A stretch of DNA of 64,000 nucleotides from Neophaeotheca triangularis (Eukaryota): contig BAAIJX010000005.1 of NCBI GenBank assembly GCA_054600435.1, forward strand, positions 620,001-684,000, in the 5' to 3' direction. The translations under genes and the position numbers were made by a program. The notes beneath the pieces were generated by a model. It ran no database searches. It saw only the letters and a list, made by a program, of their open reading frames with translations, and had not been told where the DNA came from. This document shows, piece by piece, positions 21,396 to 31,339 of the stretch. The first letter of the stretch is position 1. Every line of letters starts with the position of its first letter.

Positions 21396-22304
21396 ATGCG
21401 TTACTCCATTATCCTCACGGCCGCTGCCGCCGCCTCCGTCTCTGCCCATGCTGTTGGCAAGCGCCAGGACTCCCACGAGGTCGAGGCCCATGAAGGCTGC
21501 ACCTACACTGCCGGTGTAGAGTACGTTGATCCAAATCTACCCAGCCAACCATAGCACTGTCACTAACACTTCCACAGGCACTGCGATGCCCAGCCCGCTG
21601 AGCCTGAGCACGAGCCCCAGGTCCAGCCTGAGCAGCCCGCTCAGTACGACGACGACGACGACAAGGACGGTGAATACGATGACGACAAGGACATGGACGT
21701 CCCTGCTGAGCCCGTCGAGCCTGAGCACCAGCCCGAGGCTCCTGCTGAGCCCGAGCACGAGCCGGAAGTTCCGGCTGAGCCTGAGCACGAGCCGGAAGTG
21801 CCAGCTGAGCCCCAGCAACCCGAGGAGCCCAAGGAGCCTGAGGTTCCCGCTGAACCTGAGCACGAGTCTGAGGTACCAGCTGAGCCCCAGCAGCCCGAGG
21901 AGCCCAAGGAGCCGGAGGTTCCCGCTGAGCCCGAGCACGAGCCTGAGGTGCCCGCTGAACCTGAGCACGAGCCTGAGGTACCAGCTGAGCCTGAGCACGA
22001 GCCTGAGGTACCAGCTGAGCCTCAGCAGCCCGAGGAGCCCAAGGAGCCTGAGGCTCCCGCCGAGCCAGAGGTTCCCGCTGAGCCCGAGGTTCCCGCCGAG
22101 CCTGAGCAGCCCGAGGAGCCCGCTGAGCCCGTCGTGCCTGCGCCTGCGCCTGAGCCCGAGTACCCCGCTGGTAACGTCACCGAGCCCGTCCCCGCTCCCG
22201 ACCGCAGCGACGAGCCCGTCCCCTTCGAGGGTGCCGCCAGCAAGAGCGGCGCCACGTTCAGCCTGGCTGCCTTCATCGCCGCCATTGCCGCTTTCGTGAT
22301 GTAA
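21396..22304 (+). CDS. Secreted GPI-anchored Glu/Pro-rich repeat cell-wall protein (2 exons)
   Basis: Signal peptide MRYSIILTAAAAASVSA and a Kex2-type KR site. The intron GTACGT..CTAAC..CAG joins GVE|HCDAQP. PEVPAEPEHE repeats follow, then the GPI signal FEGAASKSGATFSLAAFIAAIAAFVM*. Confidence 0.85.
21700..22130 (+). repeat. Coding minisatellite: 30-nt (PEVPAEPEHE) and 45-nt (PEVPAEPQQPEEPKE) units
   Basis: Tandem gagcctgagcacgagcc/ccagctgagcc units are visible in both DNA and protein. Confidence 0.9.
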
Positions 22305-26700: not shown

Positions 26701-27604
26701 TTACTGATCGAACCGACTGCGCTTCTTCGGTGGTCCAGCACTGAGCCCACCCGCAGTATCAACGCCCTCCATCTTCGAAGAAGTGACAAAATCAGTCTTG
26801 TTCTTTTCCTTCAGCTTCTTTTGCTCCCTTCGCTCGTTCTCCTCAACAAGATTCTCCACGTATAGCTGCTGTGGCCATTTGACTGGTACAGCCAACCCGT
26901 CCGCTAAAGTAGTCGCGTAGCTCTCGTCTTGGGAAATTCCAGCAAAATCCATAAGTTTCGGAAGCAACATTGGGTTTCGCAAAGTCGTGTTGTTTCGCAG
27001 CCGCTCGTTGAAGTGAACGCCCTGCTTCTTGAGCTCAAGGAAGCGCTCAAACTTCCTCGTTCGGGCCGTGAGAACAGCAGCTTCTTCGCTGTTCATGGGT
27101 GGCGGAGGTGGCGAGTCGGGAATGTCGAAATTGGGAACCGTAGGCATTGTGAGCTCGCGGATCTTTTGACGTTCCAAGGTGTATGGTGATATCGGCGGTG
27201 TACCAGGTTGCTCGACGACATCAAGCGCAGGTGGTACCGACGGGCCCGGTACAGGACCTTGTACCGCAGCAGCTGTCGCTGCTATGTGTTCTTCCGGCCG
27301 GTTTGATGTCTCACGGTCCTCAAGTACATGAATCGGGCCGGCTTCTTTCGACGCGGCTGTAGGGTGTTAGGGCATGTGCGCATTATTTCATTTCTCACAT
27401 AATTAGAAGATTCATACTGATAGCACCTGACTGCTCCGGCGGCGGTACTGATGTTTCGAGCTTTGCTACCTGGTATATGGCGTTGTTAGTGAGAATCGGC
27501 GCTTCTCAGCAGTGGATAAATTAGCATAATCCTACCTTTGCCGGCTTTTCGGGCTGAATATCATCGTCCTCATCGCTGCTACCGTAGCCGACCAGTCCAC
27601 TCAT
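26701..27604 (-). CDS. HCNGP-like / SAP30-binding protein homolog (spliced)
   Basis: Starts MSGLVGYGSSDEDDD. Core: NFDIPDSPP..KFERFLELKKQGVHFNERL..LRNPMLLPKLMDFAGI. Two short introns lie near the 5' end. Confidence 0.82.
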
Positions 27605-27913
27605 TATGAATAGTGTAGTGTACTTGATCTATGTTTTCTTAAAGATGTCTTTGCTTCACCACGATGGTTAAGCTTGCCATAATTGGGCAGCCATGATTCT
27701 GCCTGCGTCTCACCGCCCGGATTTTCAAGAAGTCGCGCGTCAGTCTATCCGCCTGGAGCTGGAGCTTCAACCTCGCCCCAAACGCAACCACTTGCTCTCA
27801 CTACAGCTACATCTTCCGCCACATCACCACACACCTCCCTTCTATCTTCGAATACCTTCAATTTTTCGTCGCCTACACTCACAGGACCACACTATTGAAG
27901 CAAAACCCCCACA

Positions 27914-28834
27914 ATGAACCACTTCCCTCAAGGCTGGGGCAGAGTACGTCCCCCCAGAATCATCCAAACGCAGCTCAGACACATACACAGACAACTAACC
28001 CTCATCTCCCAGCCCCGCGATGATATCTACGGCCCGTACAACCACTCTTACATGCCTTCGCAACAACAACAACCCATCAGCCACACCCAATCGCCCATCG
28101 TAACCGGCACCTCCGTCCTCGCAATCAAATACAGCACCGGCGTCGTCATCGCCGCCGACAACCTGGCCTCCTACGGCTCCCTCGCCCGCTTCACCGACGT
28201 CAAGCGCCTCAAGCCCTTCAACGCCAAATGCGTTGTGGGCTTCGGGGGCGACGTCAGCGACATGCAGTACCTAGACCGCCTACTCATGAGCCTCGACGTG
28301 GAAGAGAAGTACGCCGGGTCCTCGGCCGCAGACATGGGTCTCTCGTCTGCTCGCGATATCCAGGAGAGCGATGACGGCCAGGGCAAGGTGATGATGAGCG
28401 CGAGGAATCTGCACACCTACCTGGCCAAGGTCATGTACAAGCGGCGTTCGGACTTTAACCCGCTGTGGAATGCGCTGTTGGTTTGCGGGCTGGATGAGCA
28501 GGGTAAGCCGTTTTTGGCCAGTGCGGATTTGCTGGGGACGACTTTCAGCGGGCCCAGCATGGCGACGGGTTTCGGCGCGCACTTGGCTCAGCCGATTCTG
28601 CGTAGGGTTGTGCCGGATGAGAAGGCCACAAAAGACTTGAGCAGGGATGATGCGGTGCAGGCGGTTAGGGAGTGCATGAAGGTGCTATTCTACCGTGATG
28701 CGAGGAGTTCGAATGAGTACAGTTTGGCTGTCGTGGACGAGAAGGGGGTGGAGTTGAAGGAGAATGAGAAGTTGGAGAACCAGAGCTGGGCGTTTGCTGA
28801 GGGTATCAAGGGATACGGTACACAGACGGTCTAG
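27914..28834 (+). CDS. PRE4: 20S proteasome subunit beta-7
   Basis: Motifs TQSPIVTGTSVLAIKY, AADNLASYGSLARF, YKRRSDFNPLWN and VLFYRDARS. Intron 27944-28012 is in frame and unspliced in the ORF track. Confidence 0.95.
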   Translation: MNHFPQGWGRVRPPRIIQTQLRHIHRQLTLISQPRDDIYGPYNHSYMPSQQQQPISHTQSPIVTGTSVLAIKYSTGVVIAADNLASYGSLARFTDVKRLKPFNAKCVVGFGGDVSDMQYLDRLLMSLDVEEKYAGSSAADMGLSSARDIQESDDGQGKVMMSARNLHTYLAKVMYKRRSDFNPLWNALLVCGLDEQGKPFLASADLLGTTFSGPSMATGFGAHLAQPILRRVVPDEKATKDLSRDDAVQAVRECMKVLFYRDARSSNEYSLAVVDEKGVELKENEKLENQSWAFAEGIKGYGTQTV

Positions 28835-29586
28835 AGTAGCGAGGTCTTCAAGCGTGGCGATGGCGAATGAGCAAGTTACGTAGGAGCTCGAGTTGGCGAA
28901 TGCTGCCACGGCTCCTACAATAGCATTGTACAACAGTATATCAATGGCGAATGAGTATTAGACTGCGCCATACGACAGTCCGAGTCTGCAAAACTGATAT
29001 CAGGTTGGTGGACATTACAGATGAGGTCAAAATCACACCCCAAAGCCCTGGAGCTATCTTGTTCTTATGCAAAACATCATTCCCCGATCAGAGCTGCACC
29101 TCTCGAGGCAAAAGCAATCCTCAATCGCATCTTCTTGAACCTCGTCCTTGTCGGAAATCTGTCCAGCTTCCCCTTGTGAATGGCATTGTATGTTTCTAAA
29201 TCGCATGACAAGAAGCCCACAGAGGAGCTCGCAACAAGCAGAGAAAAGTCGGCAGGCAGTATAGAGGCAGCTTCCACGGTGGTACATAACAGAAACCCGT
29301 GCCGTTGAATGTGTGGCGTATTCAATGGGCGCATCTCTTTCGCTACAGCAGTCGCACTTGGGGCCGAAGAGTTACACAGGTGGTGGGTTGGTATGCCTCG
29401 ATACAACGACTTGAAGCCAGTACGGGCAGAGTGATACTGCATGGAGAGAAAGTATCCCAGAGTCACCGGGATGCACTGCACGCTCCCACTTCACTCCGTC
29501 ACCCAAGCAAAGAAGAGCAAAGCAAATAAAACCACTTCAGAAAAGATACCCAACCTCTGCACCAACAGCCAAAAGGGCAAAAGGGC

Positions 29587-29604
29587 AAAAAAAAAAAAAA
29601 AAAA
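29587..29604 (-). terminator. T18 run, Pol III-type terminator
   Basis: A18 on the plus strand, directly abutting the 3' closing helix of the structured element. Confidence 0.55.
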
Positions 29605-30030
29605 CCTGGACCGGCCCAAGCGCGCTTGAGCCCCAGGGGGTCACGTATCGCGGCCGCCTCAGTGTTGAACTGAAACAGACCGGTACCACCAATCGACCTA
29701 GAAATCTGTCCAATTAGCAATGTTAGCAACCGGAACCTAGAATCTGTGAAATCAGTAGGGTTAGAATACACAAACATTACGTCCTCCGCAAGCGCCCCCG
29801 CCACATCTCCGGAGAGAGAGCGGGCGGCCACACACCCCCAGGCCGCGCCACGCTCCCTCTCCCACACCTCCAAGTCCGGAAAGTCCAGGTGATTCCAGGT
29901 GATTCCAGGTTCGAGTCCGGAGAAGTCCAGGCAGGTGAGATTCCCACGTGGTCGCCCACCGTGGTACTAATCACCCAGTCCAGTGCTGCGAGATCCGGCC
30001 GGCTTACGGGACCGGGCCCCGGCGGATTCA
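29587..30030 (-). ncRNA. Candidate structured Pol III ncRNA with a 5S-rRNA-like head
   Basis: The minus strand reads GGGTGA-TTAGTA-CCACG-GTGG-GCGA-CCAC-GTGG-GAA-TCTCACC (5S loop E/helix IV-V, 29934-29975). There is a B-box at 29908-29918, hairpins at 29811-29862, 29652-29681 and 29615-29630, and a T18 run at 29587-29604. The 5' boundary is approximate. Confidence 0.6.
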
Positions 30031-30738
30031 TTGCGTTGTTTCGTTGGTCACTTGCGCGGTGGGTTGATTATATGGTTTGTTTGGGGGTGGCTGGGAGGTG
30101 GTGGCGCTGACGTAGTGAAACGTGGTGGTATGTTTGTTATGGTGGTATGTTTGTTATGTTGGATGTTGCGCAAATTTGTTATGGCTGTTTTGCGACTACC
30201 TATATGCTTGCGCATGCACTATACATCGTCAGTTTGCGCTTCACTTGATGTCTTAAATAAGGGCAATTGACTTGCCTTTAACGATGTCTCCTACGCTGAT
30301 TCCACATCGGAGGACAGTAGCGGCGACGCTGTCAACATCCACCTTCCCACAGCACCGCTTCAGTGATAGAGAGCCTTGTAGCTTTCTGCGCATCGGTGTG
30401 GCAATACTAGGTCGACATGATCGCTTCAGCCATTGTCCTAAAGTAGCGTCAGCAGTCATAATTTGTCGTGCAGCTCGGTCGAGGACAGTGAGAGAAAGCC
30501 GGGAGGCTCACCGGAAACAATCACGAAGAGACGAAAGTACCCATGCAGCAAATTAAACGTATAGCAACCGAATGTTCACTCTGCATTTGAGGGTATCTTT
30601 TCGCAGTAATCAAGCCCAGCAGTCCGACCGTGCCGCCCACTACGCCAATAAACACCAGCCTTGTCCCTTCAACCGTGCACCGACCATATCAATAGCCGCC
30701 CACCGTAACACGTATCCCGGACCCAATGGCTCTATCCC

Positions 30739-31339
30739 TCAAACTCCCACCCCGGCAATCTTCTTCAACTCCATCTCCTTGGTCAACTCTTGATCAAGCA
30801 GCTGCAACTCTTTGACCAAGTCCTGGCAAGCCTTGACCACAGCATCCTTGGGACTGATCTCCCCATCGGTAGCAACGCGCAGCTTGAACATCGCAAACAG
30901 CGGGTGCGGAACTTGGTAAGCGGCGAAGGTGACGTGGTCCGATTTGACGAGTTTGGCGCGGATGAGGTTGCCGAGGGTGTGGTCTTCCTTGTTGAACTCG
31001 AACATGGCTGCGTTTGGGACGCCTGGTAAAAGGAAAGAAGAGAGCGCTGGTTAGAGGGGGTTGCGGATTGCGTGATAGGCGGGTGGACTGCGCTCACGAG
31101 TCTCCATTTCATAGGTGACTTTCTTCTCGCCCTCGCCGAGCAAGAAGAGCTCGTATCTGTCTGGGATGTCAAAATTGCTCGTTTGAATGCTTGGTCCATG
31201 AAGTTTGAGATTGACGCCCAGTTGGGCAAAGGCGGCGTTCTGGGCGATATTGGGTGCGTTCCAGTGCATATTTGGGACGATTGATGCTGCGCTTGTTCTA
31301 TGTACGGTATTGGGAATCCTACCTGTCTGGCGCGTTCAT
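30739..31339 (-). CDS. RPB11: RNA polymerase II subunit RPB11 (3 exons)
   Basis: MNAPDR|YELFLLGEGEKK..|VPNAAMFEFNKEDHTLGNLIR..VTFAAYQVPHPL. Confidence 0.95.

Follow-up and report, generated by a model that had tools for sequence, protein, structure and literature searches.

Is a telomere-like 9-mer, lying within a candidate small RNA between two protein-coding genes of a filamentous fungus, the template of a compact telomerase RNA, or does it belong to something else, such as a spliceosomal intron in a Pol III transcript? Both ideas were raised by the sequence-only reading of the window, by which we mean the whole 64,000-nucleotide stretch of DNA analysed here. The element sits in a gap of 1.9 kb between convergent genes, RPB11 on the minus strand (PF13656) and the proteasome beta-7 gene PRE4 on the plus strand (PF00227). 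The PRE4 exon shares 100% identity with a protein of Neophaeotheca triangularis, and the next named relatives, all Dothideomycetidae, follow at 73-76%; judged by sequence, the host of the 9-mer locus is a Dothideomycete. For comparison between strains we used sequencing runs X2, X3, X6 and X7 of the seven listed: X2 represents a close sister strain, X3 and X6 each gave one identical short contig at a depth of ~2 and contributed nothing independent, and X7 aligned solely to the PRE4 and RPB11 exons, on two separate contigs. Loci from relatives were gathered by a PRE4-based metagenome scan, of which the best 80 of 153 were kept (top identity 75%); ~43 of these reach at least 2 kb downstream, and 73 orthologous PRE4 introns recovered from the 80 served as controls. 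An HCNGP-like gene (26704-28834) next to PRE4 is present in 32 of the 80 related loci and RPB11 in none, and the joining of PRE4 to RPB11, within which the element lies, seems to be specific to this lineage. Elsewhere in the window, nested coding repeats of 9, 30, 75 and 105 nt (21717-22131) give rise to a Glu-Pro-rich protein stretch.

The 9-mer is certainly there. As first reported, TAGGGTTAG lies at 29756-29764, and it is the sole telomeric 9-mer in the window, in any register and on either strand. Taken as a template, CUAACCCUA comprises ~1.5 telomeric repeats, which is the template length of Pezizomycotina telomerase RNA (PMC3592445) if the host telomere is assumed to be TTAGGG; no host telomere sequence is found within the 64-kb window. 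By chance, one would expect 0.09-0.17 copies of the exact 9-mer per window and 1.09 if any register and either strand are allowed (P of at least one, 0.52), so that its occurrence is ordinary on the scale of the window, and in the related fungal DNA of the 80 loci telomeric strings occur at 6 per Mb of single strand. Finding it inside an element of 448 nt is, however, a ~0.3% event, or ~1% given two CTAAC motifs, and it is this coincidence that makes the 9-mer worth examining; CTAAC continues with CCTA in 2 of 480 cases, the present site being one of the two. The 9-mer is also unchanged in X2, which is one close strain (orthologs in other species were not found), folding predictions leave its bases partly free (unpaired at 0.2-0.98 per base), and the unit around it resembles a Pol III gene, all of which speaks for a telomerase-type RNA.

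Other features of such an RNA speak against it. M. graminicola, too, is a Dothideomycete, a class from which a long telomerase RNA is already described. Pezizomycotina telomerase RNAs combine a template-pseudoknot domain with a junction bearing a 4-bp P6.1 and a NUNGN loop, and the canonical molecule of N. crassa measures 2049 nt and that of M. graminicola 2425 nt (PMC3592445), whereas our element has ~445 nt and neither a pseudoknot triple helix nor a P5/P6/P6.1 junction. Even an insect telomerase RNA of 135 nt retains its pseudoknot (PMC11892584). The sequence-only reading had looked for a U-A-U pseudoknot and failed to find one, and we agree: no AAA occurs from 29755 to 29340, the first lying 415 nt past the 9-mer and beyond the T18 run that closes the unit, the number of U-tract/U-tract/A-tract arrangements from the 9-mer up to PRE4 is zero, and with no A-tract 3' of the 9-mer such a pseudoknot cannot form. 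No credible instance of a three-way junction with a 4-bp P6.1 and NUNGN loop is present in the unit either; the matches to the P6.1 pattern are G-U-rich, appear at background rate (2 in the unit, 7 in 3.7 kb), and none occurs as such in the predicted folds. As for the helix proposed to enclose the template, its arms (29780-29770 and 29727-29717) do form 10 of the 11 possible pairs, with two G-U pairs among them, but the enclosure does not survive in context: 83% of 500 flank shuffles reach 10/11, and the arms pair with a probability of 0.00 when the whole RNA is folded and of no more than 0.24 when the 75 nt are folded alone, which leaves the 9-mer with no template-enclosing or boundary helix of the Pezizomycotina kind. 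An upstream telomerase RNA cut by the spliceosome at the donor was considered as well and excluded, because no telomeric 7-mer lies between the RPB11 stop and 29781. With CCTA lost, moreover, from the duplicate unit described below, a compact Pol III telomerase-type or telomere-guide RNA appears very improbable to us.

What, then, is the 9-mer? The AU-rich GT...AG segment at 29780-29706 on the minus strand, which the earlier reading had correctly picked out, is 75 nt long with 39% GC and is set between stretches of 67% and 61% GC; what had escaped notice is that it is built on a 38-nt tandem duplication carrying four branch-type heptamers. Unit 1 (29731-29766) reads CTAAC-N4-CTGAT-N4-CAG-ATTCTAGGT and holds the 9-mer, CTAACCCTA on the minus strand, as a branch-type CTAAC plus the variable spacer CCTA, and unit 2 (29694-29728) reads CTAAC-N4-CTAAT-N4-CAG-ATTTCTAGGT. 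The two lie 38 nt apart and share the form CTAAC-N4-CTRAT-N4-CAG-ATT(T)CTAGGT, of which the 9-mer is the first half-unit. They are identical at 25 of 33 positions, a similarity equalled in 1 of 5000 shuffles, and the pattern CTRAY-N-CTRAY-N-YAG occurs twice in 128 kb, both times in this insert. Comparison of the two units shows divergent spacers next to preserved branch-type motifs and AG: unit 2 keeps all five CTAAC bases of unit 1 but just one of the four CCTA bases. Nowhere else in the window do four TNCTRAY heptamers fall within 60 nt, and at all 807 sites in the 80 fungal loci the number stays below four. The PRE4 intron 1.7 kb away carries CTAACCCT at its branch point, that is, eight of the same nine bases, and a relative's PRE4 intron (L051) contains a telomeric 10-mer. 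We therefore think that the telomere-like 9-mer is most likely the branch motif CTAAC followed by four unconstrained spacer bases, and not a telomerase template.

The alternative that had been offered alongside telomerase, an intron within a Pol III RNA, turns out to be the better reading, and indeed much about the insert (GTAATG...CAG, 29780-29706) is what one would expect of a U2-type intron. It has GT...YAG ends; its 75 nt lie inside the 47-89 nt range of the control introns, below which a 37-nt version would fall; and CTAAC stands 17 nt from the AG in both units, within the range of 10-20 nt seen in 68 control introns. A TAG acceptor ending at 29698 would alternatively give 83 nt. The composition cuts both ways, since a GC change-point at 29779-29782 favours an intron, whereas the low-GC stretch ends near 29660 and not at 29706. 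The weak point is the donor: GTAATG has T at +5, where 72 of 73 control introns have G, and it matches the U1-complementary consensus at only 5 of 9 positions. Complementarity of the insert to the LSU 3' end or to 5S shows no excess, and an introner-like element was dismissed, the insert not being multi-copy by X2 depth. On balance, the best reading of these signals is a putative insert of spliceosomal-intron type with an atypical donor.

Folding is broadly consistent with removal of the insert, although less decisively than we might wish. When it is deleted in silico, ensemble diversity drops from 0.32 to 0.15 per nt, a four-way junction appears and every listed helix has P of at least 0.77; against the intron, 15 of 75 other deletions of 75 nt give an equally well-defined fold. 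The junction has the makings of a tRNA-like module. Its 5' part (29781-29799) consists of an acceptor-like strand and the sole A-box-like word of the unit, TTGCGGAG (29791), and its 3' part (29649-29694) of an anticodon-like arm, a T-arm with the loop TTCAACA and an acceptor-like strand; the sole forward B-box-like site (29670) lies in that T-arm, so that the insert is bracketed by the one A-box-like word and the one forward B-box-like word of the unit. ARAGORN finds no tRNA gene in the window at threshold 100. After removal to the CAG acceptor it scores 86 for a 76-nt, tRNA-Thr(GGU)-like structure of pseudogene grade (10 of 1000 shuffles), and after removal to the TAG acceptor at 29698 it scores 96 (1 of 2000 shuffles), the latter being the one GT-AG cut to rank in the best 15 of 2735 deletions; without splicing, every place in the window stays below 94. 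Its relaxed mitochondrial mode calls tRNAs everywhere and was disregarded. The scores are driven by the 3' half, and the likeness to a tRNA is modest, because 20 GT/AG pairs were tried, many non-splice deletions come close in score and two G-G mismatches interrupt the acceptor stem. The insert-free RNA is thus predicted to form a well-defined, though weakly tRNA-like, cloverleaf.

The rest of the body is GC-rich and contains hairpin A at 29811-29862 (z -3.4 with boundaries picked after the fact; P ~0.85) and, towards the 3' end, the 8-bp, tetraloop-capped hairpin C at 29613-29632 (P 0.88-0.99). Taken as a whole, the unit folds with a z of -1.4, and its body, with chosen ends, with a z of -2.8. 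A 10-nt tandem repeat of 2.7 copies (29884-29910) offers CCTGGAATC, which is complementary enough to GATT(T)CTAGG in both duplicate units to form a duplex predicted at -11.6 to -19.3 kcal/mol; that the repeats at 29913-29890 pair well with both units counts against splicing, and in these folding models suggests a structure that is retained. In a separate observation, a fungal-looking contig within a bacterial assembly (L126:1450-1768, G003:C368) ends in a CCACCTGGAAT-type repeat array, after a broken, spliced transposase-like gene of a family that we take to be KDZ-like. Its match to window positions 29931-29884 (84%, E 2e-5) is probably a low-complexity coincidence.

A second feature that the earlier reading had passed over is that the head of the RNA derives from 5S rRNA. 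The unit as we delimit it runs for ~445 nt on the minus strand, from ~30048 to 29601, and consists of a degenerate 5S head, the GC-rich body and a T18 run. The head (29924-30049) scores 26.8 bits against RF00001 (E 0.0035), below the gathering score of 38 and far from the 102-106 of true 5S, and its 5' half, box A and helix I have decayed. Within it, 5S positions 72-103 (29939-29970; loop E, helix IV and the box C region) are identical at 30 of 32 bases to each of six bona fide fungal 5S genes, and nothing outside 72-103 is kept. We take these positions to be the box C promoter region, and the retained core would then be a TFIIIA promoter element. At 30068-30074, 20-26 nt upstream of the likely start near 30048, stands a TATA-like CATATAA, to which we assign a role on the assumption that Neurospora 5S promoter anatomy applies here. 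Downstream of the core, CCTGGAC replaces the 3' strand of 5S helix I and is followed by TTCT at the place of the terminator (29921-29931), where a T4 run follows GGGAAT by 14 nt in all six true fungal 5S genes. The 5S terminator has thus been lost, and the first run of four or more T comes ~335 nt later: it is the T18 run at 29587-29604, a putative Pol III terminator and the first minus-strand T4+ after the RPB11 stop. Directly before it lies the 3' strand of a terminal stem (29604-29612), whose partner is either CCTGGAC (29931) or CTGGAC (29983); the stem has P 0.97 in the body fold and 0.77 with 29983 in the full fold, and its position immediately before T18 has a probability of ~0.002 by k-mer frequency. 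A perfect B box, GGTTCGAGTCC, lies at 29908-29918 in reverse to the unit and is the sole match to the B-box consensus on both strands of the 64 kb; it is possibly an orientation-independent TFIIIC site. The element matches no Rfam family. At gathering score nothing in the whole window is found, and at E<=10 there are just the 5S head and unconvincing miRNA, lncRNA and snoRNA matches. RNase MRP/P, SRP, U3 and C/D or H/ACA snoRNAs were dropped as candidates, since Rfam support and their partner motifs are missing.

How well is the unit conserved, and how often does it occur? Among the changes listed for X2, the unit has 4 in 387 covered positions against 31 in 888 in the flanks (p=0.014, one strain). 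The figure is provisional, since it draws on the listed changes, and three stretches do not enter it: 29815-29871, 29446-29570, which is biallelic, and 30402-31000, which is partly coding. The insert has one listed change (29721), all motifs and the 9-mer being intact, against 2.6 expected for neutral DNA (p=0.26), a deficit that counts against an intron. Depth on the X2 contig, a weak guide to copy number, is 86-151 over the body, like the flanks, and 4951 over the 5S core; with one copy in the window, the unit is apparently single-copy. We saw no target-site duplication, no common word of at least 6 bases between the element's flanks, and no second copy of the head or LTR pair in the window. 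No homolog was found in other species, either in the PRE4 loci (0 of 80, the best of 153) or in pattern scans: the 5S-core pattern gave no match in viral contigs and six true 5S genes in genome contigs, and a T-arm 16-mer gave 36 matches in viral contigs, none with a convincing extension. Several side observations belong here. X2 has loose ends at 29971 and 29987, where two contigs agree with the element over the 5S core but are unrelated to it upstream, and additional 5S-core-derived units, or 5S copies that are truncated, may exist in the genome; two further loose ends, at 29935 and 29940, lead into two different true-5S 3' ends, which suggests that 5S isotypes exist. Six bacterial assemblies (L081-L086) include eukaryotic 5S contigs, two of them also eukaryotic LSU rDNA, presumably of basidiomycete type, and represent contamination. 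Finally, ~230 nt past the RPB11 stop there is a canonical intron-like segment on the minus strand, GTGAGC...GCTGAC...TAG (30511-30438, 74 nt), with six listed X2 changes inside it, none of which touches donor, branch site or AG; it points to a spliced transcript, either a 3' UTR or a lncRNA, that runs in the direction of the element.

Bringing these strands together, we lean, with a confidence that falls somewhat short of even, towards a single-copy, 5S-derived Pol III unit, set between RPB11 and PRE4, that carries an insert of spliceosomal-intron type. If so, TFIIIA would bind the retained 5S core, TFIIIC would join (A- and B-box-like sites are present) and Pol III would start near 30048, pass TTCT and terminate at T18. 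The spliceosome would then excise 29780-29706, or the segment up to 29698, probably inefficiently, from a donor that is weak or bulged and with redundant branch sites, to leave a compact RNA with a tRNA-like four-way junction, which may itself serve as an internal promoter or as an RNase P/Z processing signal. Besides the donor and the pairing of the 10-nt repeats, the loss of 5S box A and the lack of a homolog in the other species searched weigh against this account. A more prosaic possibility, unlikely in our view yet a genuine contender, is that we are looking at a decayed 5S pseudogene or SINE3-like relic that lost its terminator, had its repeats built by local duplication and has no selected function. 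The sub-threshold score of the head, the X2 contigs that share the 5S core alone, the unremarkable folding z of the whole unit and the empty PRE4 loci all fit such a relic, but it sits poorly with the sharp retention of 5S 72-103 only, with divergence below that of the flanks in the one strain compared, with a terminal stem placed immediately before T18 and with conservation between the duplicate units that is specific to motifs.

Could the RNA instead function without being spliced at all? We consider it rather unlikely that the AU-rich loop of an unspliced Pol III RNA acts as a decoy or scaffold for SF1/BBP, U2AF or the U2 snRNP, displaying four branch heptamers complementary to U2, together with paired AG acceptors, but lacking a competent donor. 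No stretch in 1.1 Mb of single strand has as dense a set of branch motifs, folding predicts three of the four heptamers to be largely unpaired (0.56-0.70), the donor is atypical and the insert is no more variable in X2 than the rest of the unit; yet we found no precedent, simple duplication of an intron 3' end would also yield redundant branch sites, and the unspliced fold is heterogeneous. A version of this idea that we regard as improbable is a functional single-copy RNA with a 5S box C promoter, in which a four-branch-site array lacking a competent donor interrupts a tRNA-like module; it is just as much a long shot that such an RNA would be a decoy or scaffold for SF1, U2AF or the U2 snRNP or, alternatively, an acceptor-only splicing substrate. 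It is also distinctly doubtful that the array serves another donor, the canonical GTAAGC at 30002-30007, which by alignment with 5S lies in an insertion in the loop C region. The resulting intron of 264 or 302 nt would carry the 5S core, and would be removed either from the Pol III RNA itself or from a spliced Pol II read-through of RPB11 or a lncRNA. This hexamer, created by insertion relative to 5S, is the donor of 7 of 73 control introns, the 30511-30438 segment provides a second canonical intron-like structure upstream on the same strand, and the U6 gene of S. pombe has its B block inside an intron (PMC5855946). On the other side of the ledger, that intron would take one strand from the terminal stem and another from the cloverleaf's long GC stem, the products fold less stably per nt, and 264-302 nt lies far outside the 47-89 nt control range.

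Our search of the literature, mostly confined to papers and main texts outside subscription, returned no description of such a unit, and the available portions of two fungal ncRNA screens (PMC8216456, PMC5640933) describe none. Its parts nevertheless have relatives. The SINE3 elements of Aspergillus, including AfuSINE3 and SINE3-1_AO, likewise join a 5S-derived head to an unrelated body of a few hundred bases, read through past a missing 5S terminator and occur at low copy number (PMC5063351), and the element shares with them the combination of internal Pol III promoter (box C core, 30/32) and foreign body, its box A being lost. It differs in that AfuSINE3 keeps the 5' half of 5S (1-64) with poor promoter boxes and the element keeps 72-103 only (PMC5063351); it also has neither dispersed copies nor a target-site duplication, is apparently single-copy and more conserved than its flanks, and has a T18 end and an intron-like insert. 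Cassandra and Ajax of the TRIMp3 type retain just the promoter part of 5S and have lost the 5S fold, as here, but are reported, in the sections available, from plants and nemerteans and not from fungi (PMC10886601), and the element shows no LTR pair in the window and no target-site duplication. The unit, in other words, works like a SINE3 or TRIMp3 promoter fusion but parts from these in copy number, target-site duplication and LTRs. Insertion of a Dada-type element into 5S (PMC3706591) was rejected for want of a target-site duplication and of a downstream 5S remainder. Spliceosomal introns do occur in Pol III RNAs, namely in fungal U6, where promoter elements can be intronic, but those introns have canonical donors and lie in a known snRNA (PMC5855946), whereas the element has a donor without +5 G, a duplicated acceptor and no Rfam family. 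A 5S gene can drive a downstream RNA in filamentous fungi, as in the 5S-promoter and 5S-tRNA-Gly cassettes for sgRNAs (PMC8542335), and the tRNA-5S dicistrons of Yarrowia place 5S and tRNA modules in one transcript (PMC2566860); the element, by contrast, is natural and degenerate, runs from 5S to tRNA-like and has neither module intact. A survey of several ascomycetes that took tRNA genes as its starting point describes, in the text available, no Pol III fusions beyond tandem tRNA genes (PMC2566860).

Why should this matter? For those who search filamentous fungi for telomerase RNAs by template, the lesson is that a branch-point CTAAC followed by pyrimidines mimics a TTAGGG template and is a trap. 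Were a branch-site array without a competent donor to prove the right description, splicing capacity would be tied to the output of TFIIIA and Pol III. If the reading that we favour is true, namely an intron-type insert in a 5S-derived Pol III unit, a SINE3-like unit would have been exapted in a fungus, the Pol III transcripts with spliceosomal introns would no longer be snRNAs alone, and this fungus would possess a natural RNA gene made of a 5S promoter fragment and a tRNA-like module, the maturation of which depends on the spliceosome.
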